A stretch of 64,000 nucleotides of DNA from Octopus vulgaris (GCA_951406725.2 OX597824.1:9982001-10046000); one strand, 5' to 3'. Positions 34,687 to 62,521 are shown, counted from the first letter of the stretch. Notes: generated by a model not told the origin, from the sequence alone. Program-made: numbers and translations.

Positions 34687-34712
34687 TATATATATTTATT
34701 TATTCTTTTCAG

Positions 34713-34902
34713 GGGTATTGTCCAGCTATTCAATGCTGTACAGGAACAACAGAAACTGAATGAGGAGAACGAAAATACCATAAACACAACTGAGTGGAAA
34801 AAACAGAAAATCTCTGAGAACACAGAGCAGATGTCATTCTTTCACCTGCTTCAAAACATGCCGAAAGTTAATTTGTCATCTCAACCAGACGACACAATTA
34901 AA
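34713..34902 (+). CDS. RRP15: RRP15 coding exon 4
   Basis: TTTCAG|G then GIVQLFNAVQEQQK (family hallmark GVVQLFNAV). Donor AAA|GTAAGT. Confidence 0.9.
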
Positions 34903-35069
34903 GTAAGTAATTCAGTAACTTGGCTCTTAATTGACTACTTCCTCCTACTCATTCCACTGCTTACCGAGACATATGATCTATTAGTAATCCGACCTCCTCC
35001 TCTAGTCATGTTATTTCATGTCTTTTCAAGTCATGTTATCCATTAGTTATGTCTTGTGTTCCTCAATTA

Positions 35070-35582
35070 CCGTAAATCCTCGAGTATAATCCGCAATTTT
35101 TTCCCAAAATTTAAAGGTCAAAATCACTAGTGCTTACTATATACGAGGTTAAAAATGAAAATTATTTTCTAAGCAATGTCCGAGTCTCTATTTGCTGTCC
35201 GGCAATGTTTATTCAGACGCATTTTGTGATGTCAAGCGTGGAAATACCTTAAGCTAAGCCTGAAAGTAATGAAGTCATAAAAGAATCATCCATAACTTGC
35301 AGTAAACAACATTTATTAAACGTTATTACTGTTATTTCTTTTATTTTCTGCAAACAAAATGCATGAAAATGCTACACGTTTGCATTATGTTATATATACA
35401 ATAATAATCAAGGACGTTACCGTATACAGTTTTACAAACCAAGGACGTTATATAGACCTCCTTGACTCAAGTTAGAGAAGGAGTGCGTATTATACACAAG
35501 GTTTAGGTTTTTCAGAGGTACAGCTCCCTAAAAATCCCCTGCATATTATAGTCAAGGGCGGACTATACTCGAAGATTTACAG
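35070..35582. mobile_element. Tc1/mariner-type MITE, unit A only
   Basis: TIRs CCGTAAATCCTCGAGTATA / TATACTCGAAGATTTACAG, TA TSD. Empty site at about 48599 in unit B. Confidence 0.85.
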
Positions 35583-35916
35583 TATATCTTCCATTGGTCA
35601 TTTCTCTTCTCCCTTGTGTTACCCTTTAATTACGTCCTGTTAACCTAGTCATGTTATCATCCATTAGTTATGTCTTTTGTTCATGAGTATTGTCTTGTCC
35701 CCCACTTGTGTTATCCGTTAGTTATGTTATCTGTTTGCCTGTGTGTGTGTATGTATGTATGTATGTGTGTATGTTATTTTAAATAGATTGATTTGGCCCT
35801 ATACAACATAAAGTTTTGTAGACTCACCTGAGCACAAGCTAAATTCTTGTGATGAGCCTGTGGAACTTTAATATGCTTGGAGCTGAATCAAACTATTTTA
35901 CACCAACCACCGCTTT

Positions 35917-36260
35917 CATCATCATCATCATCATTGTTTAACGTCTGCTTTCCATGCTGGCATGGGTTGGACGGTTTGACTGGGGACTGGTGAACCAGAT
36001 GGCTGCACCAGGCTCCAATCTGATCTGGCAGAGTTTCTACTGCTGGATGCCCTTCCTAACACCAACCACTCCGAGAGTGTAGTGGGTGCTTTTACGTGCC
36101 ACCAGCACAAGGGCCAGTCAGGCAGAAAAGGCAACGGCCACGCTCAAATGGTGTTTTTTATGTGTCACCTGCACAGAAGCCAGTCCAGCGGCACTGGCAA
36201 CGCCCTCACTTGAATGTTGTTTTTCACGTACCACCAGCACAAGTGCCAGTAAGGCGATGC
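35917..36260 (-). mobile_element. (CAT)n-tailed repeat sharing the RTE LINE 3' end (other copies at about 16500, 19872, 42195, 48906, 62637, 63260; opposite orientation at about 30000, 32650, 46950)
   Basis: CATCATCGTTTAACGTCCG..CCATGCTAGCATGGG...GGATGCCCTTCCTAACGCCAACC consensus. Confidence 0.8.
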
Positions 36261-36851
36261 TGATAAATGAGAATTGGGTCCTTAGATCCATGAGGCCTAC
36301 AGGCAAATCAATACATTGGGCCCTATAGTAGTTATTTATTGACAGCAAGTCACAGCATACATAGATCAGAATTGGTCCCCTGAACCCTTGAGACTCCCAT
36401 GCAACTGCTCTATCTGCTCATGCCTTAACACTTTGGTATTTAAACTGGCGAAGGCGGCGATCTGGCAGAAACGTTAGCACGCCGGGCGAAATGCTTAGCC
36501 GTATTTCGTATGCCGTTACGTTCTGAGTTCAAATTCCGCCGAGGTCGACTTTGCCTTTCATCCTTTCGGGGTCGATAAATTAAGTACCAGTTACCCACTG
36601 GGGTCGATGTAATCGACTTAATCCGTTTGTCTGTCCTTGTTTGTCCTCTCTGTGTTTAACCCCTTGTGGGTAGTAAAGAAATAGGTATTTAAACTGGCCT
36701 TATCCAACTAAACTATTTTACCTGCTTTATGCTCAAACTGCCCATGTGTTTTGCTGCATTGGTTCTGTCCACCTGTGTTGTTGTGTTGATTGTGTTTGCC
36801 TTGAGTTAATTTACTTGCACAATAAATATTCACCATATCTACCTATTTCAG

Positions 36852-36947
36852 CCTGAACCTGAGAAAAAGATTTGGAATTTTCTGAAAGATGACTTCATAC
36901 TCGACAGCACCAAAATGAAAGATTGGGACAAAAAAGAGAGTGTATAG
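36852..36947 (+). CDS. RRP15: RRP15 last coding exon
   Basis: TTTCAG|PEPEKKIWNFLKDDFILDSTKMKDWDKKESV* (family W..LRDDF....MKDWD). AATAAA at about 36953. CDS total 894 bp. Confidence 0.9.
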   Translation, partial: PEPEKKIWNFLKDDFILDSTKMKDWDKKESV

Positions 36948-37691
36948 TTTTAAATAAATTGTTTAAACAGTATCTTTGTGTCACTTGATGTTTTGAAGTT
37001 TGTATCATCATCACCATCATTCTTGTTATTTCATTATTAAAAGCCAGGAGTGGCTGTGCTAGTAAGTAGCTTGCTTACCAACCACATGGTTCTGGGTTCA
37101 GTCCCACTGCGTGGCACCTTGGGCAAGTGTCTTCTACTATAGCCTCAGGCCAACCAAAGCCTTGTAAGTGGATTTGGTAGACAGAAACTGAAAGAAGCCA
37201 GTCATATGTATATATATGTATATGTTTGTGTGTCTGTGTTTGTCCCCCCAACATCGCTTGACAACTGATGCTGGTATGTTTACGGCCCCATAAGTTAGTG
37301 GTTCAGCAAAAGAGGCCGATAGAATAAGTACTAGGCTTACAAAGAATAAGGCCCAGGGTCAATTTGCTTGACTAAAGGTGGTGCTTCAGCATGGCCACAG
37401 CCAAATGACTGAAACCAAAGAATATAAGCAGTGAGTTGACAGAATTATTAGCACATTCAACAAAACGCCTATCAGCTTTTCTTGACTCATGACATTCTCA
37501 GCTCAATTCCCACCAAGGTCAATTCTGTGAGTCAAAATAAGTACCAGTTGGGTACCGGGTCAATGTAACTCCCCTCTGCTGTCAAAATTTCAAGTGTTGT
37601 GCCTTTATTAGAGCAGGGTACCCTAAAACCAGATGGTGAAGAAACTATTACTACTACTACTGATGACAATAATAATAACAACAAGGATTAA

Positions 37692-37899
37692 CCCTTTAGC
37701 ATTCAGATTATTTTGTCAAATGTAATGGTTATTTATTCTCATTGTTCTGAATAATCATGTATTATCTTGTAGCTTCAAGATTTTGATGACATGGTTGTAT
37801 ATTTTAAGAATATAGGTGTGATAGATGGGATCTGGCTGATTTGAGTGTAAAACAGGTAGAATATTTGGGCCAGATATGGCCAGTTTAAATGCTAAAGGG
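37692..37899. mobile_element. piggyBac-type MITE (related copies at about 49410-49800 and, truncated, about 36430 and 57841)
   Basis: TTAA|CCCTTTAGCATT...AATGCTAAAGGG|TTAA. Confidence 0.75.
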
Positions 37900-39899
37900 T
37901 TAAAGAAGACACATCCTTAGATATAAGGGTAAGTTGAAACAACTACTAAAATCCCTACAGCTTAGCTTAACACCTTGGGAGAACTTATTGCCTTGATCAA
38001 TCTGAATGGTATAAAATGTGTCATGATGCATCTAAACAATTTGAGTTGAAGAAAGAGAACAATGCAAGAATTATATCCTGCAATCAACAGACACATTTGT
38101 CCAATCCCAGGCAAAATCAAAATCATCATTGTCCCCATTATGACTTCATATCAAAATCCATACCTGGACCCCTTTTGTTTATTTTTTTATTTTTATTTTA
38201 TAAATCTTTTCCTTCAAATACTCTCATGCCGAAATCAACAGGAGTGACCATCATCGTCATCATTATCATTATTATTATTAAGGTGGTGAGCTAGCAGAAT
38301 CGTTAGCACACTGGACGAAATGCTTATCAGTATTTCACCTGTCACTACGTTCTGAGTTCAAATTCCTTCGAGGTCGACTTTGCCTTTTATCCTTTCAGGG
38401 GTCAATAAATTAATTACCAGTGAAACACTGGGATCAATGTAATTGACTTGTCCCCACCCACAAAATTTCAGGCCTTTTGCCTTTAGTAGAAAGGATTGTT
38501 ATTATTATTGAGTGAGAGAGCAGTGCATGCCATCAAAGTGACACTGGGGTAAAATATACAAAGCCCAGTATACCCATCATAACTACCCGCCTGATAAGGG
38601 TACACTAGGAACATACATCACAACCATATGTGCGCGACATGGTGATCTCATATCAAGATAAACAGCGCATGATCTTGCAGGTGGGGGCCCATTTAGAATT
38701 TTCTTCTGGTCGAGTAACCCATCCATTTCAAAAGGTCCCTGAATAAGGGTTGCTTAAGGATGTTGAACGAAACACCCATGTTTCCCAAAGGTGAATTATC
38801 CAAACCTCCAAGAATCCCTCTCAACACATGGCTATGATGCTCCCCCACTACTTCTGCTTGTGATCAGAGATGCACCTATCATCAGCCGCTAAGGGACATG
38901 CTCAACTGGTTACGGTCAAACAACTGACAAGCAAATCTGTGGTATTGAGCAGAATATTTGCTGTAGGCCATCTTTATTATTATTATTGTCATCATTAGTA
39001 GTAGTAGTAGTAATAGTTTCTTCACCATCTGGTTTTAGGGTGCCCTGCTGCTCTTTTCCCTTCAGACTGCCACTTCAGTGCCACCAAGTCACTTTTGCAA
39101 TCTTGTCTGAGAACATGTCCGATCCAGTTCCAGCATCTGTGTCTTATTTCATCATTTAGCTTGTTGTCATCTCAGTTGTGTTATTTCTTTGCATCCACTT
39201 GAATAAGAAGTAAAAAGCTGAAAATTAATTCTAGCTTCACTTCCAAATAATTTGGGAATTTTAAACACTAGAGAGAATGATATGGACATACTATCTGCTG
39301 GAAATAGCAGCCAAATCTTTAATACCATACTGTCTTTAAAAATTAAATAAAAAAGAAAAGAATAAAGCATTATAGTTAGCATTTGTTGACATAAAGGCCT
39401 TTCATAGGTTATCATGCTCTGTAATGGAACTAACGAATGTCATGTAGGTAGTGCACGTGGTTGTCATGGCTACACTTCCGCTTGTCTGACCGACCGTTAA
39501 GTTGAATCTGTCCACTTTCAAGGTAATCAAAAGAATAATTTCGTATTTCCTTGTTCGTGACACTTATAGAAACAAGGAGTTGTGGTATTCATCCATCTCC
39601 CAAGTGCATTAGTTATCACCGACTTATTTGTTATATTGTTTATTGACTTCACTTTTGGTGTGTTTACATCACGTTAAGCCATTCAACAACATTCACCTAG
39701 ATTATCCGGCACCAATAGACATTTCGGCAAGTATACGACTACTTAAAATAATTACAAACTTTTATTTAAAATCATTTTTAAGGTGGAAGAGTGAAGTGAA
39801 AAATAGATTTGAGAAAATAGGAAGAAGAAAATGTACCTGATTTTGTAGGGGGGGACTTGTCTCTGTGAAACATTCAAAAGCTTATAGTATACGTGATGG

Positions 39900-41030
39900 A
39901 TTAACGGAGAATCTTGCCTCCCAGAATATAGAAACATTTCCCATGGCACCAGCTGACAAAATGGAAAAGGTTTTGTCCCGGAGGATAGCGAGGGAGATGC
40001 GTTGGAATAGCCACTCTGACTCCACGGGGTTCGCACTTGCAGACAGTAACCCTGCGTCCACATACTCCCTCCACAACACTGATATCAAGAAATCCTCTTG
40101 CGAGCGTGACCTAGACATCACTGTCAGCAGTGATTTGCGTTGGACAAAGCATATCTCTAAAATTGTCAAGAAGGCCGAGGGTGTCTTGGCATCACTCAGC
40201 AAGACTTTTGTTAGCCGCTCTCCAGCCATCTATTTAAAACTGTATACAGCTATGGTACGACCACACTTGGAATTCGCATCATCAGTTTGGAACCCCTATC
40301 TTGCTCAGAACATTGACCTCCTAGAATCTGTCCAGAGACGTGCAACCAAACGCATACCCTCCATCAGACACCTACCATATTCTGAGCGCCTTGTTTCCCT
40401 GGGCATGGATTCACTGAAGCTCCGGCGTCTGGCGACGGACTTGGTAAACACCCACAAAGTTATCAACCACCTCACCAACAACAACACTGAACACCTTTTT
40501 GATCTCCATGTGTCTAACACAAGTGGACATGCCTACAAAGTCAGAAAACAACACAGCTCCCATGACTTTCGGAAACATTTTTTCACGCTCAGAGTTGCTG
40601 AAGCATGGAATAAACTGCCTGCGTCAGTTGTTGACTGCCATGACACTGCATCCTTTAAGGCCCTCATGCTTTCCGAAATCCGCCGAAGCTACACCTGATT
40701 ATATATACACTTTAGATGAGTTGTAGTGCACCTGAGCACTGTACACAATTATTATTATTATTATAATCTCCGCCCCGATATCGGTAATCAGAGATATGGT
40801 CCGGGGGCCAAGTGTGCTGGAGGTCTGCATTGCTACAAGTTCGACCATAAACCTGTCGGAAAGTTTGACTGTTTTTCTCAGCCTGACGAGCAGCGGAGCC
40901 TGGGTTGGTAGCTGACAACACCAAGCTGCCGCTGGAGGTGCCACAGCATGTGTCATCTGGCATCCCAGATGAAGGGCCTTCCGTCACTGTGAGAGACAAG
41001 ATCCTCCGATAATCCACCATGCACACTATA
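39900..41030 (-). mobile_element. Degenerate CRE-like (restriction-like endonuclease) non-LTR retrotransposon 3' fragment, interrupted by the LINE above
   Basis: Frameshifted pieces SATNPGSAARQAEK, LSDRFMVELVAMQTSSTLGPRTISLITDIG and ESEWLFQRISLAILR resemble the CRE-clade C-terminus (AAAxxAE..K, F.P..VET.G.WG, QRLSLAIQRGN). Confidence 0.7.
40050..40766 (+). mobile_element. 5'-truncated L2/CR1-group LINE (RT C-terminal region plus (TAT)n tail)
   Basis: ERDLDI..SSDLRWTKHI...LYTAMVRPHLEFASSVWNP...LESVQRRATK...FFTLRVAEAWNKLP. Absent at the paralogous site near 54763. Confidence 0.9.
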
Positions 41031-41816
41031 AGCCTAAGGTCTCACAGAGATACATTCTGAGTATAGAAATATACACATATTCTTCTTCCTATCTTTTCAT
41101 TGTTTTTAAAATCAAATCAGTTTTTTTACTTCACCCTTCCTCCTCTGTCTTTTAAGGTTACGCAGGGTGGAAATCAAATCTTTGAGGCGCTTATCCAGAT
41201 TCGTAAAGTATCTAATTGTTTCGTTTTTCACCTAAACAATTTCATTTTTATAATTTCGCTCTATCTCTCATACGAAATGTTTAAAAGTTAAAACATTGAC
41301 TCTTTTTCGTTTTCCTTATAAATGTTTAAAATGTCTTTTTCTACTTTATGTATTTTGATTTTTCTTTTAAACGTTTAAAAGTCATTTCACAGCTCTATAT
41401 ATCTTATAAATAGCACCTTAAAATTCCCAAAGAAGTATCTTCTCAAAGTGTTGTTAGTATGATTTAACCCCAGGTAGGTAAAGTTCTAGATAGCAAGAGA
41501 ACAGACAAAATTCTACTTCCTTCGGGAAAATGGCTTTGCTCAATATGTAGGAAAGGTGTAGGCAGAAATTTTCTGCAGTGAACTCAGTGCAAGCCATGAT
41601 CCATTCTTGAATTAATTCATTTTGGATATGTTCTTGCATGGATCTTCTATTCCTGGCCATTTGTGTTGTAGCCAATGTTCTTCCCTCTTTGTAGCAGCCC
41701 ACATTTCACCTGCTATAAGAGAACGGGTACGACAGTACCATTGAAATCGGACAGTACAAATACTTACAAAATTATATTTTATTTTATTTTATCATTTCTC
41801 TCTAGATAATATTACA

Positions 41817-41955
41817 ATGGCTGATCCCAATTCAGGTAATATTGAGCAAGAAGAGGAGACAAACGTAGGCGAAGATGAGAATGCAGACCAAAGTGAAAGT
41901 AACATTCAGCAAGATGATGGCGAAGGCAGTCAGGAAGGGGATGAAGAAGGTGAAG
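41817..41955 (+). CDS. Unknown acidic protein, copy A, first coding exon
   Basis: Acceptor TTTCTCTCTAG (exon from 41806), ACAATGG start, MADPNSGNIEQEEETNVGEDENADQSESNIQQDDGEGSQEGDEEGE, phase-1 donor G|GTAAC. Confidence 0.7.
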
Positions 41956-43174
41956 GTAACATTCAGGGCTTAGTGACTTTTGGTAATGATTAAAACTTGC
42001 CTTACCTTAACTGCTACATCATATTTTCGCATAATATGATCCCTCATGTATTTAGAGCTAATCCTGCTAATCCTGCCTTAGTCTCAGTGAGACTCATGGT
42101 CTGTATGTTTATCCAGTTCTGATAGCAATAAGGTATTGGCATGGCAGCATGGTAAGATGTTTGGTCCCACTGTGTAGCACTTCAGACAATCATCACCATC
42201 ATCATCATTTAACGTCCGTTTTCCATGCTAGCATGGGTTGGATGGTTTGACCAGGGTCTGGGAAGCCAGGAAGCTGCACCAGGCTCCAGTCTGATCTGGC
42301 AGTGTTTCTACAGCTGGATGCCCTTCCTAACGTCAACCACTCCGTGAGTGTAGTCGGTGCCTTTTACATGCCACTGGCACAAGGGCAGGATGATGTGTCA
42401 TGATGAATCTCCCTGAGAACTACATTAAGGGTAAGCGTGCCTGCAAAGTGGTCAGTCACTTGCGGATCGATTTCTTGGTCAGGCTGTTCCATTGATCAAC
42501 TCAACTGGGACACTCGTCGTCACAACTGACAGAGTACCCAGCAGCAATGCGAGTGAAATAACCAATATCACAACACTCCCCCTGAAAGGGACACCCATAC
42601 ATTTCAGGGTTCAAGACCAGCCATTTTGAAGCAGGTCAGAGCTAAGTTAGTTTTACCAATCTCCTGTAATTTACTGATACTTGACTCTAAAGGGATTAAA
42701 GGCAAAGACGGAAACTGAAAGAAGCCCGTCATGTATATGTATATATATGTGTGTGTGTGTGTTTGTATGTCTCTGTTTGTCCCCACCAACATCGCTTGAC
42801 AACTGATGCTAGTGTGTTTATGTCCCCGTCACTTAGCAGTTTGGCAAAAGAGGCCGATAGAATAAGTACTAGGCTTACAAAGAATAAGTGCTTGGGTCGA
42901 TTTCCTCGACTAAAGGTGGTGCTCCAGCATGGCCGCAGTCAGATGACTGAAACAAGTAAGAGAGTAAGCATTTTGCCTGGTGTACTAACAGTTCTGCTCG
43001 CTCACTGCCTTAGTAGTAATGATAATAATAATAATAATAATAATACTATTGCTTCTACATGTTTATACTGAAAAGAATGTTTTTCCCTTTTTATTTTTTT
43101 CAAATGTTATTCATTTTAATTAATGTTAAAGTTTGTATTATAATAGACATACTGTTCTGGACTTTTGTTTGCAG

Positions 43175-43483
43175 AGGATGTACCTGAATTAGCTCAGGAT
43201 GAAGATGTTGAGTTGCCTGATGATGCATTAACTGATGAGGCTGATCAGTTAGCAAAAGCTGCAAGTGATGTGATGAGTGAAACTGGATCTGCTTTGACAC
43301 AAGGGTCTGAGATATCAGAGGAAGAAGTAGAAGGAGCGGTTGTAAGTGAAGAAGATCAAAATCTTTTACAAACTCCTGTGAGCGTTGACGAAACTGAGGT
43401 TTGTACTTCTCAGGAAGAAGTTGAAGCAACTTCAGCAACAGAATTAGAGCCATTGAAGGAGGAAGAGGCAGCGGAAGAGGAAG
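43175..43483 (+). CDS. Unknown acidic protein, copy A, exon (309 bp, phase 1-1)
   Basis: TTTGCAG|EDVPELAQDEDVELPDD...EEEAAEEE G|GTATG. Frame is open and conserved in copy B with only in-frame indels. Confidence 0.7.
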
Positions 43484-44189
43484 GTATGGACTTTATTAGA
43501 ACAGTGCTTACTTTTTCATTAAGTAAATATCTACTCTGATATTGTTGTGTGGTTAAGATGTTTGCTTTGCAACCCTGTAGTTCAGTCCCACTGTGTGGCA
43601 CCTTGGGCAAGTATCTTCAGCTATAGCCTTGAGCTCACCAAAGCTTTGTGAGTACATTTGTGAGTGGAGGCGCGATGGCCCAGTGGTTAGGGCAGTGGAC
43701 TCGCGGTCATAGGATCGCGGTTTCGATTCCCAGACGGGGCGTTGTGAGTGTTTATTGAGCGAAACCACCTAAAGCTCCACGAGGCTCGGCAGGGGATGGT
43801 GGTGATCCCTGCTGTACTCTTTCACCACAACTTTCTCTCACTCTTACTTCCTGTTTCTGTTGTACCTGTATTTCAAAGGGCCGGCCTTGTCACTCTCTGT
43901 GTCACGCTGAATATCCCCGAGAACTACGTTAAGGGTGCACGTGTCTCTGGAGTGCTCAGCCACTTACACGTTAATTTTCACGAGCAGGCTGTTCCGTTGA
44001 TTCGGATCAACCGGAACCCTCATCGTCGTAACCGACGGAGTGCTTCCAATTCCACATTTGTGAGACAGAAACTGAAAGAAGCCCATCATATGTATGTGTG
44101 TTTGTGTTTGTGTGTGTTTATATCTACTATGAGGTGGTATTAAAACGTTCCCAAACTAGTTATGTTTAATAAGAAATAGACTTATTTAA

Positions 44190-44590
44190 AAATAATACAA
44201 TAATAATGAAATTATTGTATACAGTGCTCAGGTGCACCACAACTTGTCAAAAGTGCGTATAAAGCATATGCAGTAATGTACAAATGTCTGGAAAGCAAAC
44301 AGTGTATGAGTCAGATATATGCTTGTGTGTGTATGGAGGGGAGAAAATCAAGTGTAGTGTTGGCGAATCTCGGGAAGCATGGAAGTTTTGAAGGATGCAG
44401 TGCTTCGACAACTAACAACTGATGCCGGCTGTCTGTTCCATGCTTCAGCAACTCTTAGCATGAAAAAAATGTTTCTAAAAGTCATGGGAGATGTGCTGTT
44501 TTCTGACTTTGTAAACATGTCCACGGGTGTTAGACAGGTGGAATTTGAAAAGGTGCTCAGAGTTATAGTTAGTAAGATGGCTAATAATTT
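44190..44590 (-). mobile_element. L2/CR1-group LINE 3' fragment (further copies at about 50035-50400 and 61545-61930)
   Basis: LRVAEAWN..PASVV..., with the same 3' UTR as 40050-40766. Confidence 0.8.
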
Positions 44591-46194
44591 GTAAGACATA
44601 ACAAAAATTCTCTGAGATTCTTTAGATGAATAGATACACATACTCGGGTGTATGTATTGACAGCTCAACCAACATACCAACTCAACCAACATACCAACTC
44701 AACCAACATACCAACTCAACTACATATCAACACCAGGAACTCTCTTAAACCAAAGTCTTGTCACCTTGTGAGTGACCAGCTTGAACTCTCTTAAAAAGAA
44801 CTTAAATTAAACTGAAAAAAAAATCGTACACACATATTTGTTTGCTTTATGTCGTTGGCACAGGAGTGGCTGTGGGGTAAGTAGCTTGCTTCCCAACCAC
44901 ATGGTTCTGGGTTCAGTCCCATTGCGTAGCACCTTGGGCAAGTGTCTTCTACAATAGCCTTGGGCCGACCAAAGCCTTGTGAGTGGATTTGGTAGACGGA
45001 AACTGAAAGAAGCCCGTCGTATATATGTATATGTATATATGTGTGTCTGTGTTTGTCCCCCACCTCCAACATCACTTGACAACCAGTGGTAGTGTGTTTA
45101 CGTTCCTGTAACTTAGCAGTTCGGTAAAAAAGCCGATAGAATAAGTACTAGGCTTACAAAGAATAAGTCCTGGGGTTGATTTGCTCGACTAAAGGCAGTG
45201 CTCCAGCATGGCCACAATCAAGTGACTGAAACAACTAAAAGAATGTGTGTGTGTGTGTGTTTGTGTTTGTCCCCTCCACCATTGCTTGACAACCAATGCT
45301 GGTATGTTTACGTCCCCGTCACTTAGTGGTTCCGCAAAAGAGTCCAATAAAATAAGTAGTAGGCTTACAAAGAATAAGTGAATTTGTTCTACTAAAGGTG
45401 GCCACAGTCAAATGACTGAAACAAATAAAAGAATAATGATTTCAAATTTTGCCATAAGGTTAGCCATTTTGGGGGAGAGGATTAGTCGATTATATCGACC
45501 CCAGTGTTTTGCTGGTACTTAATTTATCAACACTGAAAGGATAAGTCAACCTCAACGGAATTTGAACTCAGAACATGAAGACAGACAAAATACCTATTTC
45601 TTTACTACCCACAAGGGGCTAAACACAGAGAGGACAAACAAAGACAGACAAATGGATTAAGTCGATTATACCGACCCCAGTCTGTAACTGGTACTTATTT
45701 CATTAACCACAAAAGGATGAAAGGCAAAGTCGACTTTGGCGGAATTTGAACTCAGAACGTAGTGGCAGACAAAATACTACTAAGCATTTCACCCAGCATG
45801 CTAATGATTCTGCCAGCTCACCACCTTAGTATTATGTCTTTATAATAAAAACAATTTTACAATAAACGGTAAAATTACACACACACATATACACACTATG
45901 GGCTTTTCCCAGTTTCCATCTACCAGATCAACTCACAAAGCTTTGGGATGCCCTGGGGCTATAGTAGAAGAGATTTGCCCAAGATGCCACACAGTGGAAC
46001 TGGACCCAAAACCATATAGTTTAGGAACAAAGCATCTTAACCACACAGCCATACCTGTGTCTGTATATATGTGTGTGTGTGTGTGTGTGTGTAAATCCTT
46101 TGTTGCAAGGTATGAACTGAAAAAATGAAGGCTTGTAAAAGTTATTCTTCAATTGTTTTCTTTTCAATCTTTCTTCTTTCTTCTTCTTCTTTAG

Positions 46195-46266
46195 AAGCAG
46201 GTGATGAAGCAGGTGATGAAGCCGTTGATGAAGCAGGTGATGAAGATGCTGAATGTTCTAGCTCAG
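46195..46266 (+). CDS. Unknown acidic protein, copy A, micro-exon (72 bp, phase 1-1)
   Basis: Long pyrimidine tract, TTTAG|EAGDEAGDEAVDEAGDEDAECSSS G|GTGTG. Confidence 0.6.
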
Positions 46267-46808
46267 GTGTGTTTCTGAGGAAGTTAATTACTTGACTACT
46301 CGTGATAATGGACAGAACTGTCAGTGCTACGAAGAGGTGTGCATGTCCTTGTGTGTGTGTGCTTATGTGTGTGTATACAAACACATGCATATGTGTATAC
46401 TTATGTATACACACATAGTGGAGGCGCAATGGCCCAGTGGTTAGGGCAGCAGACTTGCAGTCGTAGAATCGTGGTTTCAATTCTCAGGACGGGCATTGTG
46501 AATGTTTATTGAGCAAAAGCACCTAAAGCTCCACGAGGCTCCGGCAGGGGATGGTGGTGATCCCTGCTGTACTCTTTCACCACAACTTTCTCTCACTCTT
46601 ACTTCCTGTTTCTGTTGTACCTGTATTTCAAAGGGCCGGCCTTGTCACTCTCTGTGTCACGCTGAATATCCCCGAGAACTATGTTAAGGGTACACGTCTC
46701 TGTGGAGTGCTCAGCCACTTATACGTTAATTTCACGAGCAGGCTGTTCCGTTGATCGGATCAACCGGAACCCTTGTTGTCGTAACCGACGGAGTGCTTCC
46801 TTTCCTTA

Positions 46809-47455
46809 TATCAGCTCTGAAAAACCGATAAATAAAACAACACAGCTGATTTCATTCACTAAGCTACACTACTTTATGGTGTGTATCTTTACTGTACATA
46901 TTTTAATATGACTTTATAGGCTTTTACTCTTAATCGATGCTAGTGTCGCCTTGACTGGTGTCCGTGCTGGTGGCACATAAAAAGCAACAACCGATCATGG
47001 CCGTTGCCAGCCTCCTCTGGCCCCTGTGCCAGTGGCACATAAAAAGTACCCACTACACTCTTGGAGTGGTTGGTGTTAGGAAGGGCATCCAGCCGTAGAA
47101 ACACTGCCAGTTCAGACTGGAGCCTGGTGCAGCCTCCTGGCTTCCCAGACCCCTGTTGAACCGTCCAACCCATGCTAGCATGGAAAACGGACGTTAAAAC
47201 AATGATGATGATGATGTACAGTAACATGATTTTATGTGTTTTTTAACGGTTTTCTAGTGATTTTACGATTCCAGTATTTGTGGCGGACAGACGTAAAGTC
47301 GAGTGAAATGACTTGACTTGATTTTTATTTTTCCAATGTTGTTATATTTTCTTGATAACATAATAGGTTAGACAGGATGATGTCGATATTACGATCCTGA
47401 AATTAGCATTAGCTTATCTTACTCTTTCTTACAGAACCCTGGTTGAGAAATGCTG
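46809..47455. mobile_element. Same hAT element, right part (unit B)
   Basis: Starts with the 32196-32220 sequence and ends with TIR GGTTGAGAAATGCTG followed by GTGTATAC. Confidence 0.7.
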
Positions 47456-47796
47456 GTGTATACCCTTCTCTAGACATAACATGATGGTTGTAAATCACTG
47501 TCATCATCATCATCACCATCATCATCATAGAAGCAATGTTGTTTGCTTCCAGTCTTCTTTGAAAAACATGTCTGGTCATGGGAAAATATTTTTTTGCATG
47601 AAAAGAATGGTGAGGGTTGGCAACAGGAAGAGCCTCCAGCTGTAGAATATCTGCCTCTACAAATTCCATCTGACCCATGCAAGCATGGAAATATAAACAT
47701 CACCCATAAATTTTAGATATTTTCTTGTTGGTTTTATTTTTTCTCTTTCCTTTTAATTCATTTTGCTGTTTTTCTCTTTCTTTTTTTCTTATCCAG

Positions 47797-50603
47797 AGGA
47801 TCTTTAAACTTCTTTTAGCCAGAACAAAGCGTAATGTCCTTGAGATAAATAAAGAACTCCAATTGACAGCAGTAGCTACACAGTAAGATTTGTTTTTCTG
47901 TTTTGTATTTCATTGTATGCCTGAAGGGGAAAGTTATTTCAAGGCTGCCTTGAAATAATACCACAAAATGCAGTATATTTAAGAGACCAAAAAAGTAAGA
48001 TGCAAAAGAGATGTTTTCTTCAAACTTGGCCTGGAGGAAGGAAAGACTATTTGGTTTCTCAAGAAGTTTTTTTTGCCTTAACTTCATTTAACAAACCCCA
48101 AAAATTTATTGAAATAAAGGCATGCTTAATTATTTTTTAATGAAAAGAAAACACTGATTGCTTTTTATTCAGCAGATTTGATTCAGCACCGACCATTGGA
48201 CGGTGGGGGGGGGGGCGTTTTGCTTGTATGTATTTATATATATATACATATATATATATTCGTTTCAGAGGTATTGTCCAGCTATTCAATGCTGTACAGA
48301 AACAACAGAAACTGAACGAGGAGAACGAAAATACCATAAACACATCTGAGTGGAAAAAACAGAAAATCTCTGAGAACACAGAGCAGATGTCATTCTTTCA
48401 CCTGCTTCAAAACATGCCGAAAGTTAATTTGTCATCTCAACCAGACAACACAATTAAAGTAAGTAATTTAGTAACTTGGCTCTTAATTGACTACTTCCTC
48501 CTACTCATTCCACTGCTTACCTAGTCATATTATCTATTAGTTATCCCACCTCCTCCTCTAGTCATGTTATCCATTAGTTATGTCTTGTGTTCCTCAATTA
48601 TATCTTCCTCTGGTCATTTCTCTTCTCCCTTGTGTTACCCTTTAATTACGTCCTGTTAACCTAGTCATGTTATCATCCATTAGTTATGTCTTTTGTTCAT
48701 GAGTATTGTCTTGTCCCCTACTTGTGTTATCCATTAGTCATGTTAACTGTTTGCATGTGTGTGTGTATGTATGTATGTATGTGTGTATGTTATTATTTTA
48801 AATAGATTGATTTGGCCCTATACAACATAAAGTTTTGTAGACTCACCTGAGCACAAGCTAAACTCTTGTGATGAGGCTATGGAACTTTATGAAAACAAAG
48901 TTTTCATCATCATCATCATCGTTTAACGTCTGCTTTCCATGCTGGCATGGGTTGGACGGTTTGACTGGGGACTGGTGAACCAGATGGCTGCACTAGGCTC
49001 CAATCTGATCTGGCAGAGTTTCTACTGCTGGATGCCCTTCCTAACACCAACCACTCCGAGAGTGTAGTGGGTGCTTTTACGTGCCACCAGCACAAGGGCC
49101 AGTCAGGCAGAAAAGGCAATGGCCACGCTCAAATGGTGTTTTTTATGTGTCACCTGCACAGAAGCCAGTCCAGCGGCACTGGCAACGCCCTCACTCGAAT
49201 GTTTTTCGCATACCACCAGCACAAGTGCCAGTAAGGCGATGCTGATAAATGAGAATTGGGTCCTTAGATCCATGAGGCCTACAGGCAAATCAATACATTG
49301 GGCCCTATAGTAGCTATTTATTGACAGCAAGTCACAGCATACATAGATCAGAATTGGTCCCCTGAACCCATGAGACTCCCATGCAACTGCTCTGTCTGCT
49401 TATGCCTTAACACTTTGGCATTTAAACTGGCCTTATCCAACTAAGATATTTTTTTTCCTCTCCTTGTTTTTTCTGTGTCCCTTTCTGGCGAAGAGCGTAG
49501 GCTCGAAACGTAAAAGACTTTTTCTATTCCTGAGCGTTATATTAATACATCTGTTTGTTTTGTACACCAACTGTCTTCGTCTTTTGTTTTTTTCGTAAAC
49601 TCCCCCTAAGATATTTTACCTGCTTTATGCTCAAACTGGCCAAATCGAGACCCTTATACCTACCCTACAATATCATTCTAAAAATAAACTACCACATCAT
49701 TCATCAGAATCTTAAAGCTACAAGATAATGCATGATTAATTCATAACAATATGAATAAATAAGCAATACATTTGACAGGGTAATCTGAATGCTGAAGGAT
49801 TAAGATAGTACAGGTATGTGATTACCTGTATAATTGTGTTATGTTCCCTTCTGTTGAGTGGTTCACTTGTTTTATTCTATGTGTTCACCTGTATGATTTT
49901 TTTTATGTTCACCTGTTTTGTTGTGTTGACTGTTTCTGTTATGTTCACTCTGTTTGCCTGTGTTATTGTGTTAACTATGTTCACCTCTTCTGACCATTCA
50001 ACTAATTTGTTGGCTGGACTGTCCATGTGTTTTAATAATAATAATAATAATAATGAAATTATCGTATACAGTGCTCAGGTGCACCACAACTTGTCAAAAG
50101 TGCGTATAAAGCATATGCAGTGAATGAGTCAGAGACATGCTTGTGTGTGTATGGAGGAGAGAAAATCAGGTGTAGTGTTGGCGAATCTCAGGAAGCATGG
50201 AAGTTCTGAAGGATGCAGTGCTCCGACAACTAACAACTGATGCCGGCACTTTGTTCCATGCTTCAGCAACTCTTAGCGCGAAAAAATGTTTCCGAAAGTC
50301 ATGGGAGCTGTGCTGTTTTCTGACTTTGTAAACATGTCCACAGGTGTTAGACAGGTGGAGTTTGAAAAGGTGTTCAGAGTTATTGTTTGTAAGATGGTTG
50401 CTGCATTGGTTCTGTCCACATGTGTTGTTGTTGTTGTTGTGTTGATTGTGTTTGCCTTGAGTTAATTTACTTTCACAATAAATATTCACCATATCTATCT
50501 ATTTAAGCCTGAACCTGAGAAAAAGATTTGGAATTTTCTGAAAGATGACTTCATACTCGACAGCACCAAAATGAAAGATTGGGACAAAAAAGAGAGTGTA
50601 TAA
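47797..50603 (+). pseudogene. RRP15: 5'-truncated duplicate of RRP15 exons 3-5 (47797-47882, 48269-48458, 50508-50603)
   Basis: Near-identical copies of 32302-32387, 34713-34902 and 36852-36947 with their intron flanks. No exon 1-2 upstream, several missense changes, and the last acceptor changed from CAG to AAG. Confidence 0.85.
49453..49605 (+). mobile_element. About 150-bp element carrying a minimal hammerhead-like motif (49481-49516); second copy at about 18886-19031
   Basis: 12-bp TSD CTAAGATATTTT, empty site near 36710. Motif CTTT-CTGGCGA-A-GAGC-GTAG-GCTC-GAAAC-GTA-AAAG. Confidence 0.6.
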
Positions 50604-50873
50604 TTTTAAATAAATTGTTTAAACAGTATCTTTGTGTCACTTGATGTTTTGAAGTTTGTATCATCATCACCATCATTCTTGTTATTTCATTATTAAAAGC
50701 CAGGAGTGGCTGTGCTAGTACATAGCTTGCTTACCAATCACATGGTTCTGGATTCAGTTCCACTGTGTGGCACCTTGGACAAGTGTCTTCAGCCTCACGC
50801 CGACCAAAGCCTTGTGAGTGGATTTGGTAGATAGAAACTGAAAGAAGCCAGTCATATGTATATATATATATAT

Positions 50874-55025: not shown

Positions 55026-55934
55026 TATAAGCCTAAGGTCTCACAGAGATACATTCTGAGTATAGAAATATACACATATTCTTCTTCCTACCTTTTCATT
55101 GTTTTTAAAATCAAATCAGTTTTTTTACTTCACCCTTCCTCCTCTGTCTTTTAAGGTTACGCAGGGTGGAAATCAAATCTTGAAGCGCTTGTCCAGATTC
55201 GTAAAGTATCTAATTGTTTCGTTTTTCACCTAAACAATTTCATTTTTATAATTTCGCTCTATCTCTCATACGAAATGTTTAAAAGTTAAAACATTGAATC
55301 TTTTTCGTTTTCCTTATAAATGTTTGAAATGTGTTTTTCTACTTTATGTATTTTGATTTTTCTTTTAAACGTTTAAAAGTCATTTCACAGCTCTATATAT
55401 CTTATAAATAGCACCTTAAAATTCCCAAAGAAGTATCTTCTCAAAGTGTTGTTAGTATGATTTAACCCCAGGTAGGGCATTCTCGCTGTTCTCATATTCT
55501 TATTTTTATTTTTTAAAATAGGATTGCATTATCTAGTATTCGGTGTCTTGCTCTGTCCCTTTTTCTTTTCTTTCTATTTTTAAAGTTCTAGATAGCAAGA
55601 GAACAGACAAAACTCTACTTCCTTCGGGAAAATGGCTTTGCTCAATATGCAGGAAAGGTGTTGGCAGAAATTTTCTGTAGTGAACTCAGTGCAAGCCATG
55701 ATCCATTCTTGAATTAATTCATTTTAGGATATGTTCTTGCAATGATATCCCTGGCATGGATCTTCTATTCCTGGCCATTTGTGTTGTAGCCAATGTTCTT
55801 CCTTCTTTGTAGCTGCCCATATTTCACCTGCTATAAGAGAACGGGTACGACAGTACCATTGAAGTCGGACAGTACAAATACTTACAAAATCCTATTTTAT
55901 TTTATTTTATCATTTCTCTCTAGATAATATTACA

Positions 55935-56073
55935 ATGGCTGATCCCAATTCAAGTAATATTGAGCAAGAAGAGGAGACAAACGTAGGCGAAGATGAGAAT
56001 GCAGACCAAAGTGAAAGTATCATTCTGCCAGATGATGGCGAAGGCAGTCAGGAAGGGGATGAAGAAGGTGAAG
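55935..56073 (+). CDS. Unknown acidic protein, copy B, first coding exon
   Basis: Paralog of 41817-41955 with the same splice sites, MADPNSSNIEQEEE... Confidence 0.7.
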
Positions 56074-56279
56074 GTAACATTCAGGGCTTAGTGACTTTTG
56101 GTAATGATTAAAACTTGCCTTACCTTAACTGCTACATCATATTTTCGCATAATATAATCCCTTATGTATTTAGAGCTAATCCTGCTAATCCTGCCTTAGT
56201 CTTAGTGAGACTCATGGTTTGTATGTTTATCCAGTTCTGATAGCAATAAGGTATTGGCATGGCAGCATGGTAAGATGAT

Positions 56280-57200
56280 CCAAGGTAAGCACAGCAGGCC
56301 GTCCTGCGAGCCATGAACTCACTTCATTTGTCGGGTCTTCGCAGCCACAGCATATCCCCAGAGGTCTCAGTCTTTCGTCATTGCCTCTGTGAGGCCCAAC
56401 ATTCGAAGGTCCACCACATCCCATGTCTTCCTGGGTTTACCTCCACCCCGGATTCCTTCAACTGTTTGGGAGTGGCACTTCTTCACACATCTCTCCTCGT
56501 CCATCCGTAGTACATGAACATACCAACACAAATGTCTCTCCTGCATGCCACATCCAATGCTTCTTATGCCCAACAGTTCTCTCAGGACGCTTACACTCTG
56601 TCGTGCATGCACACTGACATTACACATCCTGCAGATCATGCTAGCTTCATTTCTTTTAAGCCTACACATGTCCTTGGCAATCATGGCCCATGTTTCACTG
56701 CCGTGAAGTATGGCGGTTCGCACACATGTGTCATACAATCTACCTTTCACTCTGAGCAAGAGACCCTTTGTCGCCAGTAGGTGAAGAAGCTTTCTAAACT
56801 TTTCCCAGGCTATTCTTATTCTAGTGGTAACACTCTCTGAGCATCCACCCCCACTACTAACTTGGTCACCCATCAACTACTTCTAGTTTCTCCCACTTGA
56901 GTTAGATGGAATCTGTTTTCTGAGTATCTGTGGTGTCTATTGCCCCTGTGCATCTGCCACACACGATAGCTATCTTCTCGGTTAATTTTCCTTTGATGTT
57001 GCTGCACCTCTTATGTGTCCATAGCTTACACTGGGTACATCTTATAGAGTTTCTACCGACACCTTTTCTACAGATTGAGCAGGTCCACCTACCTGAGGGG
57101 TGGGAGTGAAGAGTTCACCTTCCTGCTTACTAGAACTTTGGTTTTTGCTACATTGATTCTAAGGCCTTTTGATTCTAAACCTAATTTCCACACAAGCATC
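56280..57200 (-). mobile_element. RTE-clade LINE fragment (RT C-terminus with embedded Cys/His finger), unit B only
   Basis: CSICRKGVGRNSIRCTQCKLWTHKRC, then GGGCSESVTTRIRIAWEKF...KGRLYDTCVRTAILHGSETW...GKPRKTW. Confidence 0.85.
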
Positions 57201-58538
57201 TTATTATGTCTGACAAGTGTCATATTATGTCTTCAACTATAGCCCCAAGCTGACCAAAGCCTTGCGACTGGATTGAACAAAAGAAGCCCATCACACACAT
57301 GTGTGTGTGTGTGTGTGCACACGTGTGTATGTGTCACTGTCTCCTTGTGTTAGATGTAAACTCCAGGTGTTAGTTGTAAACAAGTGCCACTGTCGTGCCA
57401 GCAGTGTCATTCATTCCCATTCTTCCAAGAAAACATGTCTGGCCATGGGGAGATATCACCTTGCTTGGAAACAGGTTAGCGTTGGAGACAAGAAGGGCAT
57501 CCACCCTTAGAAAATCCACCTCTAGCTACGTCACTGATAAATACACATATATAAAGTAACCATTCTGTATATTCTACATACCCATTATTCCTTTATTGCC
57601 CACAAGGGGATAAACAAGGACAGACAAAGAGATTAAGGCAATTACATCAACCCCAGTGCATAACTGGTACTTTATTTATCGACCCCGAAAGGATGAAAGG
57701 CAAAGTCAACCTCAGCGGAATTTGAACTCAGAACATAATGGCCGATGAAATACTGCTAAGCATTTCGCCCGGCGTGCTAACGATTCTGCCAGCTCGCCGC
57801 CTAATTTTCTACATACCCCCATGCTGCACCATTGATTTAACCCATTAGCACTTAAACTGGCCATATTTGATCCAAATATTCTGTTTTATGTTCAAATAGG
57901 CCAGATTCAACTACTCGCATCTACTCTGAAGTGGCTGTGTGGTAAGTAGCTTGCTTACCAACCACATGGTTCCGGGTTCAGTCCCACCGCATGGCACCTT
58001 GGGCAAGTGTCTTCTGCTATAGCCTCGGGCCGACCAAAGTCTTGTGAGTGGATTTGGTAGACGGAAACTGAAAGAAGCCCGTTGTATATATGTATATGTA
58101 TATATGTGTGTGTGTGTGTGGTTGTGTGTCTATGTTTGCCGCCCCCCCAACATCGCTTGACAACAGATGCTAGTGTGCTTACATCCCCGTAACTTAGCAG
58201 TTCGGTAAAAGAGGCCGATAGAATAAGTACTAGGCTTACAAAGAATAAGTGTTTGGGTCAATTTCCTCGACTAAAGGCGGTGCTCCAGCATGGCCGCAGT
58301 CAGATGACTGAAACAAGTAAAAGAGTAAGCATTTTGCCTGGTGTGCTAACAGTTCTGCTCGCTCACTGCCTTAGTAGTAATGATAATAATAATAATAATA
58401 ATAATAATACTATTGCTTCTACATGTTTATACTGAAAAGAATGTTTTTCCATTTTTATTTTTTTCAAATGTTATTCATTTTAATTAATGTTAAAGTTTGT
58501 ATTATAATAGACATACTGTTCTGGACTTTTGTTTGCAG

Positions 58539-58871
58539 AGGATGTACCTGAATTAGCTCAGGATGAAGATGTTGAGTTGCCTGATGATGCATTAACTGAT
58601 GAGGCTGATCAGTTAGCAAAAGCTGCAAGTGATGTGATGAGTGAAACTGAAAGTGCTTTGACACAAGGGTCTGAGATTGAGAAGATGGCTCCAGAGAAAG
58701 GCTCTAGAAGAGATATCGCATTATCAGAGGAAGAAGTAGTAGGAAGGTTTTTAAGTGAAGAAGATCAAAATCTTTTACAAACTCCTGTGAGCGTTGAAGA
58801 AACTGAGGTCAGTACACCTCAGGAAGAAGTTCCAGCAACAGAAGAAGAGTCATTGAAGGAGGAAGAGGAAG
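58539..58871 (+). CDS. Unknown acidic protein, copy B, exon (333 bp, phase 1-1)
   Basis: Paralog of 43175-43483 with in-frame indels, including an extra EKMAPEKGSRRDIAL. Confidence 0.7.
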
Positions 58872-58926
58872 GTATGGACTTTATTAGAACAGTGCTTACT
58901 TTTTCATTAAGTAAATATCTACTCTG

Positions 58927-59533
58927 ATATTTAAATCTCAGAATGAGATTGAAACAGTAATCGCTCGATAATGTAAAGTATAGAAGCCATCTTATCATGG
59001 CTAACCACATAGAGGAGGGGGTGTTACTGTAGCTTTATAGCCCCAAGAGATCTTCGTCTCCAGCTGGCTTTAGACACAATATCAGTGCCCTTGGAGTATT
59101 TGCAAAGGGAGGCCATCCCTTCCTCGCAAGCCTGAGTGATACGCTCGAACTAGTTTCGGGATATTTGTCCCTTGTCAACGGGCGGTAACCACCAGGATGC
59201 GACGAAAGTGAAGGCTTCCTTGCAAATATATAAAAGCTTTTCTAGTGGCGTCTGCCACTGATTTCGAAAAACTGACAGTAAGCATATTTAAATCTCAGAA
59301 TGAGATTGAAACAGTAATCGCTCGATAATGTAAAGTATAGAAACCATCTTATCACGGCTAACCACATTGGGGAGGGGGTGTTACTGTAGCTTTATAGCCC
59401 CAAGGGATCGTCGTCTCTAGCTGGCTTTAGACACAATATCAGTGTCCTTGGAGTATTTGCAAAGGGAGGCCATCCCTTCCTCGCAAGCCTGAGTGATATG
59501 CTCGGACTAGTTTTAGTCCGGACTAAAACTAGT
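58927..59533 (-). mobile_element. Penelope-like partial tandem repeat (pseudo-LTR-like) with a hammerhead-like motif, unit B only
   Basis: About 230-bp direct repeat (58927-59155 versus 59285-59513). GAAACTAGT hammerhead signature on the minus strand. Ends in a 28-bp perfect palindrome. Confidence 0.55.
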
Positions 59534-59809
59534 AATCCGGATACAGAAGCTGGAGGTTTGGAAGCAGTTGTCCACAGTTATCTTCTTTCTCTTTGATTTT
59601 CAAAGAGATATTCACATCAGCAGGTCAACTGACCTCTCTCCCGGTACATACATTTCTTGTCTACCCAAACGAACTTTGTTATTAAAACCCTTTGATTTTG
59701 TTGGATCCTGAAAATAATTATATGTATGTATGTGTGCATTGTCTGATGCTGGGGGTGACATTTATTATTTGTTTTCTTTTCAATTTCTCTTCTTTTTCTT
59801 CTTCTTCAG

Positions 59810-59845
59810 AAGCAGTTGATAAAGCAAGCATACCTGATGTTGAAG
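59810..59845 (+). CDS. Unknown acidic protein, copy B, 36-bp micro-exon
   Basis: (TTC)n TTCAG|EAVDKASIPDVE G|GTAGG, phase 1-1. Flanks resemble those of the other micro-exons. Confidence 0.55.
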
Positions 59846-59998
59846 GTAGGTTTCTGAGAATGTCCGTTACCTAGCTGCTCAAGATATTGATCAGACCTAT
59901 CATCAAGATGAAGAAATGTGTGTGTGTGTGTGTGTGCATGTAACAATTATTATTTAACTGTTTTCTTTCCAATCTTTTACCTCCTTTTTCTTCTTCAG

Positions 59999-60049
59999 AA
60001 GCAGCTGAAAAAGCAGAGGCACCTTTGGATGTCCAACCCACTGTCACAG
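59999..60049 (+). CDS. Unknown acidic protein, copy B, 51-bp micro-exon
   Basis: TTCTTCAG|EAAEKAEAPLDVQPTVT G|GTAGG, phase 1-1. Confidence 0.55.
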
Positions 60050-60434
60050 GTAGGTTACTGAAAGAATTAATTTCCTAACTACTCATTATATCGTGCATAC
60101 CCACCATCATGACCGAAAGCAATGTGTGTGTATGTATGTGGACGTGTGTTCATATATATATACACACATACACATATGTATATAACATGCACGCACACAC
60201 ATGTTTATGTGTACATACACAAATATATTTATATATCATCATCATCATTTAACATCCTCTTTCCTATACTCACATGGGTCAGACAGACACCCTTTTTGGC
60301 ACTAACCCTCACTTATTTCCAAACGAGGTAGCATTTTCCATAATCCTTGTTTTTACAGAAGACTGGAAATGAACACCCTCACTTATATGATAGTGATGCT
60401 ACTCTACAACCATCACATGATATCAAGACAAGGG

Positions 60435-60477
<43 letters not shown>

Positions 60478-60866
60478 ATAGTGTTGAACATAGGCCAGAC
60501 ATGTTGGCATAGGGGACTGTTCATTCTCTCAGGTAATGAATACTATCTTCTATGATTATTGTCATTAATGCAAGCCTGGTAAAAGAAATGGTTATTTTCT
60601 TTGAGTAAAAGCAAACCAACAACCTTTTTTGAAATACATACCACATGGAAAATTACTATACTTTCACCATTGCAATGAAACAATCTGGCATTAGGCTGCA
60701 TGAAAAGACTTAAAGAATATTGAGATAAGAAAAACCCAACAATCTCAAATTTTTCAGAAAAACAATTACTTTAATGGCTACATTTGTTAGGAAGAAATAT
60801 TCGACCTTACCAAGCAAAATCATTCAGCCAAAATATACAAATGATAATGTTCTTTTTCTTCTTCAG

Positions 60867-60907
60867 AAGCAGCTGAAAAAGCAGAGGCACCTTTGGATGT
60901 CCAGCCC
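60867..60907 (+). pseudogene. Duplicated copy of the 51-bp micro-exon that lost its donor to a SINE
   Basis: Matches 59999-60039, then SINE sequence. The original downstream intron sequence resumes at about 61388 (ACTGAAAGAATTAATTTCCTAA). Confidence 0.6.
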
Positions 60908-60942
60908 GTATGCGGGCGAAATGCTTAGCAGTATTTCATCTG

Positions 60943-61289
60943 GGTGAAGGTGCATGACTCAATGGTTAGAACGTCAAACTTACGATCGTGAGGTTGTGAG
61001 TTCGAATCCCGGACCAGACTGTGTGTTGCGTTCTTGAGCAAGACACTTTATTTCACGTTGCTCCAGTTCACTCAGCTGTAGAAATGAGTTGCAATGTCAC
61101 AGGTACCAAGCTGTATCGGCCGTTGCCTTTCCCTTGGATAACACTAGTGGCATGGAGAGGGGAGGCCAGTATGCATGGGCGACTGCTGGTCTTCCATAAA
61201 CAGCCTTGCCCAGACTTGTGACTAGGAGGGTAACTTTCTAGGTGCAATCCCATGGTCAGTGTCATGACCGAAGGGGGTCAACAACAACA
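60943..61289 (+). mobile_element. tRNA-derived SINE family 4 nested in a family-1 SINE
   Basis: B-box GTTCGAATCC, (CAA)n tail, 13-bp TSD AGTATTTCATCTG. Confidence 0.8.
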
Positions 61290-62410: not shown

Positions 62411-62521
62411 AAGCAGGTGATGTAGCCGTTGTTGAAGCAGGTGATGTAGCCGTTGTTGAAGCAGGTGATGAAGCCGTTGTTGAAGCAGGTGATGAAGCTA
62501 TTTATGTAGATACTAGCTCAG
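62411..62521 (+). CDS. Unknown acidic protein, copy B, 111-bp exon with internal 24-bp repeats; the gene probably continues right of the window
   Basis: TTTAG|EAGDVAVVEAGDVAVVEAGDEAVVEAGDEAIYVDTSS G|GTATG, paralog of 46195-46266. Confidence 0.6.

Follow-up and report, generated by a model that had tools for sequence, protein, structure and literature searches.

Results

RRP15 and IQUB adjoin at the octopus locus

We analyzed a 64,000-nt window of the 2.8-Gb Octopus vulgaris genome (G000:C11:9982001-10046000; coordinates above 64000 refer to its extension by ten adjoining stretches), in which a tandem duplication has left the first exons of one gene, IQUB, upstream of exons copied from its neighbor, RRP15. 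On sequence grounds the upstream gene is RRP15, a ribosome-assembly gene. Its exon 4 matches the Pfam family Rrp15p (PF07890) with 29.6 bits against a curated cut-off of 27, and the parental RRP15 letters dominate in sequencing contigs matched to the locus. The downstream gene, which the preliminary description called an acidic gene, is by its sequence IQUB, and its second copy (copy B) is a full member of the IQUB/CFAP253 family; with this identity that description also missed the loss of all folded domains in the first copy (copy A). The IQUB exon at 58541-58870 led to one protein, P0001 (904 aa), among 2,107 candidates. P0001 falls in a cluster that includes named IQUB proteins from two octopus species, maps exon by exon at 100% over 16 exons from 55935 to 86734, and contains the IQUB family PF25805 at residues 572-707 (166.5 bits). 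Proteins deposited as Octopus vulgaris align to the window with 100% identity. Copy B is similar over their full length to solved IQUB/FAP253 chains (8j07_c2, E 1e-158), the alignments beginning at P0001 residue 208-360. Passages of two papers describe IQUB as a radial-spoke-1 stalk protein of motile cilia and sperm tails, whose loss leads to asthenozoospermia in man and mouse (PMC11755891, PMC10774353).

A tandem duplication places IQUB exons upstream of RRP15 exons

Self-comparison of the window revealed a collinear tandem repeat, in which 32195-46502 recurs from 46808 to ~63130. The duplicated unit (~14.5 kb) runs from RRP15 intron 2 into the IQUB intron that follows the exon at 46195-46266, leaving three IQUB exons (A1, A2 and A3) upstream of copied RRP15 exons 3-5 on the same strand (Table 1). 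The copies diverge by 3.6% (192 of 5,368 aligned non-coding bases in 17 blocks, 96.4% identity), and are further separated by 27 non-coding indels and many private repeat insertions. In a genome-wide search exon A2 and the exon at 48269-48458 had two matches each, all in the window. Because identity is 96.4% in collinear blocks and each tested exon has exactly two genomic copies, the duplication is not a chance similarity. To call it "newborn", as the preliminary description did, overstates the case, given this divergence and the presence of the junction and its stop under a second organism label (see below).

The duplication junction lies at ~46503-46808, inside and just behind a mosaic short interspersed element (SINE). 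The 5' part of this element has six variants in common only with the orthologous copy B SINE, all within 46451-46502. From 46523 on, 41 variants are B-only, and here the element differs by 2.6-3.7% from four young copies and by 16.5% from the copy B SINE. This pattern points to SINE-SINE recombination as the event that produced the junction, the rival being a later conversion of the junction SINE. The copied RRP15 exons are on the same strand, as previously described, but do not follow directly, since a repeat-rich block of ~890 bp comes after the junction.

Splicing the phase-1 donor of A3 to the acceptor at 47797, which an acceptor scan gave as the first strong acceptor 3' of A3, yields a joined frame that ends ...CSSSEDL after 176 aa; the parental exon would instead give EENETSFSQNKA and a stop after 185 aa. 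These coordinates and both readings agree with the preliminary description, as do the origin of the stop in a clustered change at the start of the duplicate exon (four substitutions, 47801-47805) and the retention of copied exons 3-5 with their AATAAA (50609). Its claim of retained GT-AG sites holds for the dinucleotides throughout the copied exons, while the exon 5 acceptor has changed from CAG to AAG. A local template for the clustered change was not found among 9-11-mers on both strands near both copies. Copied exon 3 has eight substitutions, an apparent excess (P 0.014) that disappears when the cluster is counted once (P 0.20). The stop-creating change matters little, because it cuts only nine residues from an already out-of-frame tail.

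By sequence, the best-conserved non-coding block of the duplication (40765-41478) is likely to be the putative promoter/5' untranslated region (UTR) of copy A. Just upstream of it the first copy has a private insertion of ~700 bp (40050-40764) within a 285-aa open frame that matched no Pfam family and is presumably like the end of a non-LTR (long terminal repeat) retroelement. Two micro-exons of full-length IQUB (59810-59845 and 60000-60050) are absent from copy A. Similar phase-1 micro-exons, their acceptors nearly identical, make up the acidic N-terminus of copy B (59810-60910); a third micro-exon copy at ~60868, with its donor region missing and repeat-interrupted, is absent from deposited proteins.

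Contigs from three studies carry the hybrid splice

Exon A2 was present in 20 of 24 sequencing runs listed by a search, none recorded as RNA and 14 guessed to be RNA. Five runs were examined: X1, X3, X8 and X11 over 41000-48600, and X1, X3, X11 and X14 over 46140-46345. The evidence consists of assembled contigs (graph paths) rather than reads, from which rare variants are dropped, and results for 41000-48600 refer to the matches listed. We argue that the runs derive from RNA, because their contigs carry intron-free junctions. Contigs of A1 and A2 showed at most one mismatch and ended where the exons do (41000-48600), and A2 was joined to A3 without an intron in X3 and X11 (contigs of 330 and 424 nt).

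Over 46140-46345, contigs of three of the four runs left the genome exactly at 46266 and were spliced to 47797: their next 30 letters are those that open copied RRP15 exon 3, its copy-specific start among them. These junction contigs have 68-69 nt on the A3 side and reach past 46266 by 83 nt (X1), 117 nt (X3) and 39 nt (X11). The three runs belong to studies P1, P2 and P4, with organism labels A, A and B, respectively. No contig matched in X14 (organism C), which may be a filter effect. No retrocopy was found in the genome, as matches to A2 and to exon 48269-48458 are limited to the two window copies each, and with two genomic copies only, a retrocopy cannot account for the intron-free contigs. 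The chimeric splice from A2-A3 to copied RRP15 exon 3 therefore exists, bearing out the earlier expectation of a copy-A transcript that reaches 47797.

Onward splicing to copied exon 4 is suggested by the X3 contigs, because the loose end of 117 nt equals 86 + 31 nt and the X3 parental contig begins at 48270. The loose end stops at 48299; at the next base the paralogs differ again. The letters specific to copied exon 4 (48300, 48317 and 48345) had no cover in all four runs, which is uninformative as contigs drop rare variants. Of the 3' UTR made of former RRP15 exons that had been proposed, exon 3 is spliced as described, whereas contigs of the runs examined gave no sign that copied exon 5 or its poly(A) signal is used. 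The hybrid is thus seen as contig splices, a single full-length molecule lying beyond contig evidence. Contig depths were 3-4.5 for the hybrid, 15.5 (X1) and 3.6 (X3) for a full-length IQUB exon and 34-177 for RRP15, values unfit to rank genes.

Three details of these exons are recorded here. At position 47821 the X3 junction contig has G where the genome has A, either an allele or adenosine-to-inosine editing. An AATAAA lies within copied exon 3 (47848-47853), as it does in the parent, and the X1 hybrid contig stops at 47879, 26 nt past it, at an internal poly(A) site or through low cover. The first base of exon 4 differs synonymously between the copies (A at 48269, G at 34713); the parental contig of organism B seems to carry A, so G may be derived.

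The hybrid would encode a predicted-disordered acidic fragment

The predicted product has 176 aa, 38% Asp/Glu, two Lys/Arg, an isoelectric point of about 4 and the C-terminus SSSEDL, to which RRP15 contributes three out-of-frame residues. Copy A corresponds at most to residues 1-223 of copy B, and neither A1 nor A2 matched a Pfam family. In an AlphaFold2 model of IQUB (25 sequences, shallow in this region), residues 1-234 have a predicted local distance difference test score (pLDDT) below 50 and the first strands appear at 240. The ubiquitin-like, IQ and PF25805 regions are all absent from copy A, which ends before this first folded element, so by this model the hybrid would encode only the disordered acidic N-terminal fragment of IQUB. 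Of 41 IQUB-like proteins examined, 38 have an acidic N-terminus (17-36% Asp/Glu, 90-431 aa) ahead of the folded part, and the remaining three start at or near the folded part. The hybrid would appear to free a module that is conserved in kind, without the parts responsible for the position of IQUB in the spoke. The passages of PMC11755891 describe no role for the IQUB N-terminus, with no hits for "N-terminal".

An endoplasmic reticulum-retention reading of the ...SEDL end was rejected, as the sequence has no hydrophobic leader; ...SEDL does not fit the KDEL pattern either.

By position, the stop lies 75 nt upstream of the exon 3/4 junction, for which onward splicing is suggested by the length of one contig, and the predicted 3' UTR is about 366 nt. 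Junction-dependent nonsense-mediated decay (NMD) calls for a stop that precedes a spliced junction by more than 50-55 nt; by this criterion the hybrid RNA is a possible NMD target. NMD may act in molluscs according to passages of a snail CRISPR study that call for confirmation (PMC12277549); our literature search listed no cephalopod NMD study.

Selection and age

The copied RRP15 exons have 0.035 non-synonymous (pN) and 0.036 synonymous (pS) differences per site, matching the non-coding value (0.036). Between copies A and B, IQUB exons 1-2 have 19 non-synonymous and three synonymous differences (pN 0.056, pS 0.036, Fisher P = 0.59), and dN/dS is not different from 1 for the hybrid exons. Retention of the frame, start and splice sites has a probability of about 0.24 under neutrality. 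Neither pN/pS nor this intactness probability gives a significant sign of selection on the hybrid. Among 25 candidates there was also no protein of 56-179 aa corresponding to copy A, and these results support neither the synthesis of the 176-aa protein inferred earlier nor a function for it.

The organism-B contig differs from A2 at one of about 308 letters; set against 3.6% between the copies, this makes the duplication several times older than the split of organisms A and B. At 47831 the X11 junction contig appears to agree with the parent (depths sum to 38.4), suggesting that the copied exon is still changing and the stop is shared. The share for organism E (0.35) equals that of A2 words also found in copy B (0.348), and no dating rests on it. 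No pre-duplication cephalopod IQUB was named among 37 matches.

Table 1. Features of the RRP15-IQUB locus, in window coordinates.
Feature	Position	Strand	Remarks
Intact parental RRP15 gene	29661..36958	+	AATAAA 36953
Parental RRP15 coding exons	29661-29732, 30463-30914, 32302-32387, 34713-34902, 36852-36947	+	
First copy of tandem unit, RRP15 intron 2 to IQUB intron	32195..46502	+	collinear diagonal runs
Best-conserved non-coding block of duplication	40765..41478	+	1.4% divergence
IQUB copy A exon A1	41806..41955	+	ATG 41817; X1 contig, 0 mismatches over 41811-41955
IQUB copy A exon A2, acidic	43175..43483	+	309 nt; contigs end at exon borders in X1, X3, X8, X11
IQUB copy A exon A3, last IQUB-derived	46195..46266	+	72 nt, AG/GT, phase-1 donor
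Mosaic SINE at junction	46415..46807	+	crossover 46503-46522; 7-nt filler 46801-46807
Second copy start	46808..46833	+	26 nt identical to RRP15 intron 2 (32195-32220)
Repeat-rich block, ~890 bp	46834..47720	.	absent from parental intron; insertion here or deletion there, unpolarised
Copied RRP15 exon 3, read out of frame	47797..47882	+	stop TAA 47805-47807; junction contigs X1, X3, X11
Copied RRP15 exon 4, likely 3' UTR	48269..48458	+	onward splicing suggested
Copied RRP15 exon 5	50508..50614 (exon 50508-50603)	+	stop TAG to TAA; AATAAA 50609; putative use
Full-length IQUB (copy B), 5' part	55924..64000	+	ATG 55935; extends ~23 kb past window
Copy B exons in window	55924-56073, 58539-58871, 59810-59845, 60000-60050, 62411-62521	+	

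Elsewhere in the region, a minus-strand gene at 16704-27156 lies head-to-head with RRP15, and its exons match the DCAF4 beta-propeller (PF23761) at E ~1e-5, below the cut-off. An exon-like frame on the minus strand at 3576-4193 matched no Pfam family; we take it to resemble the start of a DCAF5-type WD40 protein. About 95 kb downstream of the window (extended coordinates ~158970-160690, plus strand) is a 272-aa Ser/Thr/Lys-rich frame with a repeated exon-start motif.

Discussion

We favor, with a probability of roughly 60%, the explanation that a tandem duplication created a spliced IQUB-RRP15 hybrid encoding a 176-residue, predicted-disordered acidic fragment that is likely in near-neutral drift. 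The sequence of events would have begun with the tandem duplication observed across the RRP15 3' end and the IQUB 5' end, with its ends, probably through recombination between two SINEs that left the mosaic element at the junction. A2-A3, spliced as seen in the contigs to copied RRP15 exon 3 at the first strong acceptor downstream, would be transcribed from the copied IQUB promoter, with copied exons 4-5 supplying the 3' UTR and poly(A) site. Without ubiquitin-like, IQ and IQUB domains the product would be unable to join radial spoke 1, and the RNA would probably be removed in part by NMD. With both parents still intact, the hybrid would carry little cost and so persist.

Several observations weigh against this explanation. 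The donor of the SINE 3' part (46523-46800) was not identified; the SINE at 31450 in RRP15 intron 2 is a candidate at a suitable distance (3.7%), although A does not have three subfamily variants. Decay, if it occurs, is incomplete, because the hybrid RNA can be detected in three studies. The copy A frame is intact, and divergence is lowest in the presumed promoter block (1.4%). Three indels between A2 and B2 (45, 9 and 12 nt) and a 3-nt gap in the organism-B contig all keep the frame, as do 10 of the 27 non-coding indels. The contrast has a P of about 0.02-0.05 provided that all arose on the A lineage, but the A2/B2 indels are unpolarised and lie within triplet-rich sequence. The N-terminus of full-length IQUB is itself fast (10/219 vs 5/681 residues between two octopus species), and amino-acid divergence therefore cannot detect constraint. 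The low N-terminal pLDDT also reflects poor alignment depth there.

Some of these points would equally suit a functional young gene, in which a free, highly acidic disordered protein is made under the ciliary/sperm program of IQUB and acts as a competitor for partners of the IQUB acidic N-terminus, a polyanionic chaperone or a cation buffer. The frame has stayed open after 3.6% divergence with only frame-keeping indels in A2, the junction and stop are identical under two organism labels, and the acidic N-terminus of 38 of the 41 IQUB-like proteins suggests a module kept by evolution. In flies and worms NMD depends on UTR length rather than on junctions, and if the same were true of octopus the ~366-nt 3' UTR would escape decay. 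We nevertheless consider such a gene unlikely, with its intactness short of significance (P about 0.24), no folded domain, no annotated protein among the 25 candidates, and no IQUB N-terminus role in the passages of PMC11755891. Frame retention would also be accounted for if copy A served as extra 5' exons of IQUB, A3 being spliced in frame to 55924 to give 1,074 aa with a doubled acidic N-terminus, the RRP15 relics being skipped and the hybrid RNA being a by-product of a competing acceptor. A deposited model missed by the preliminary description, CAI9729678.1 (1,074 aa), has A1-A2-A3 continuing in frame into 55924 and all of copy B. The downstream site 55924 also scores as a strong acceptor, the length of the N-terminus differs widely among IQUB proteins, and the copy B N-terminus consists of similar micro-exons. 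The A3-55924 junction was, however, in none of the three contigs covering the donor, all of which run into the copied RRP15 exon (rare forms being dropped from contigs), which suggests that the deposited model is a mis-join or a minor form, and we regard this reading as improbable.

We put no more trust in a splicing switch, by which the copied acidic exons would give either a free 176-residue polyanion via the RRP15 exons or a radial-spoke IQUB with a doubled arm; if true, it would tune ciliary or sperm beating in one octopus lineage. That the duplication or its junction is an artefact of haplotype mis-assembly, a retrocopy or template switching onto parental RRP15 RNA seems very improbable indeed, even though the runs are merely guessed to be RNA and contigs, not reads, were used. 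The copies are 3.6% apart with many private insertions, there is no third genomic copy, A2 and A3 are also joined without an intron, and the junction contigs of all three studies carry the copy-specific AGGATCTTT start rather than the parental one.

The locus offers a fully resolved, RNA-supported mollusc chimeric transcription unit with mapped breakpoints and both parents adjoining. It is a natural reporter for junction-dependent NMD in cephalopods (a stop 75 nt before a junction, with a short UTR) and a natural test of the role of the IQUB acidic N-terminus, conserved in kind and unstudied. If the fragment is untranslated or unconstrained, it is ordinary duplication debris. We found no paper on IQUB and octopus, or on RRP15 and IQUB together, subscription papers and supplements lying outside the search.

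Within the IQUB/CFAP253/CMUB116 family (PF25805), copy B is a full member, whereas copy A is a 5' paralog without its domains. The human genes ARHGAP11B and SRGAP2C are truncated duplicates of demonstrated function in which a folded interaction domain is retained. Copy A is like them a 5' partial duplicate with a short new C-terminus, but keeps only a predicted-disordered region. The Drosophila gene Sdic, a Cdic-AnnX chimera in the passages available (PMC3449122), likewise arose by incomplete duplication over two neighbors, with a microtubule-motor-linked parent and internal deletions afterwards. Sdic keeps a folded dynein-chain part, has about 10 copies and affects sperm competition; the octopus hybrid exists in one copy, retains no folded domain and is without a shown effect. 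Nor is it a protein chimera in the manner of Sdic, as its RRP15 part is out of frame and the kept region has pLDDT <50.

By the definition in the relevant passage, a chimeric duplicate combines duplicated sequence from at least two donors, of which one or more must be genic (Katju 2012, PMC3449122). At the octopus locus IQUB exons and RRP15 exons 3-5 were joined in a single event over two adjacent genes, the junction is transcribed and spliced, and, as in Katju's description, both parents (RRP15 and the 904-aa IQUB) are intact. Passages on Drosophila yakuba report 76 chimeric genes among 1,116 tandem duplications, such chimeric duplications being common in Drosophila, with loss as the prevailing fate (PMC5460883). 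As in these chimeras, the 5' part of the downstream gene stands before the 3' part of the upstream gene, and the parents are same-strand neighbors. Unlike the polymorphic D. yakuba cases, the octopus event is older and has a mosaic SINE at its junction, and unlike the chimeras in both sources its 3' partner gives only three out-of-frame residues and UTR. The octopus hybrid is a further case of the known chimeric-duplicate class, clean but ordinary.

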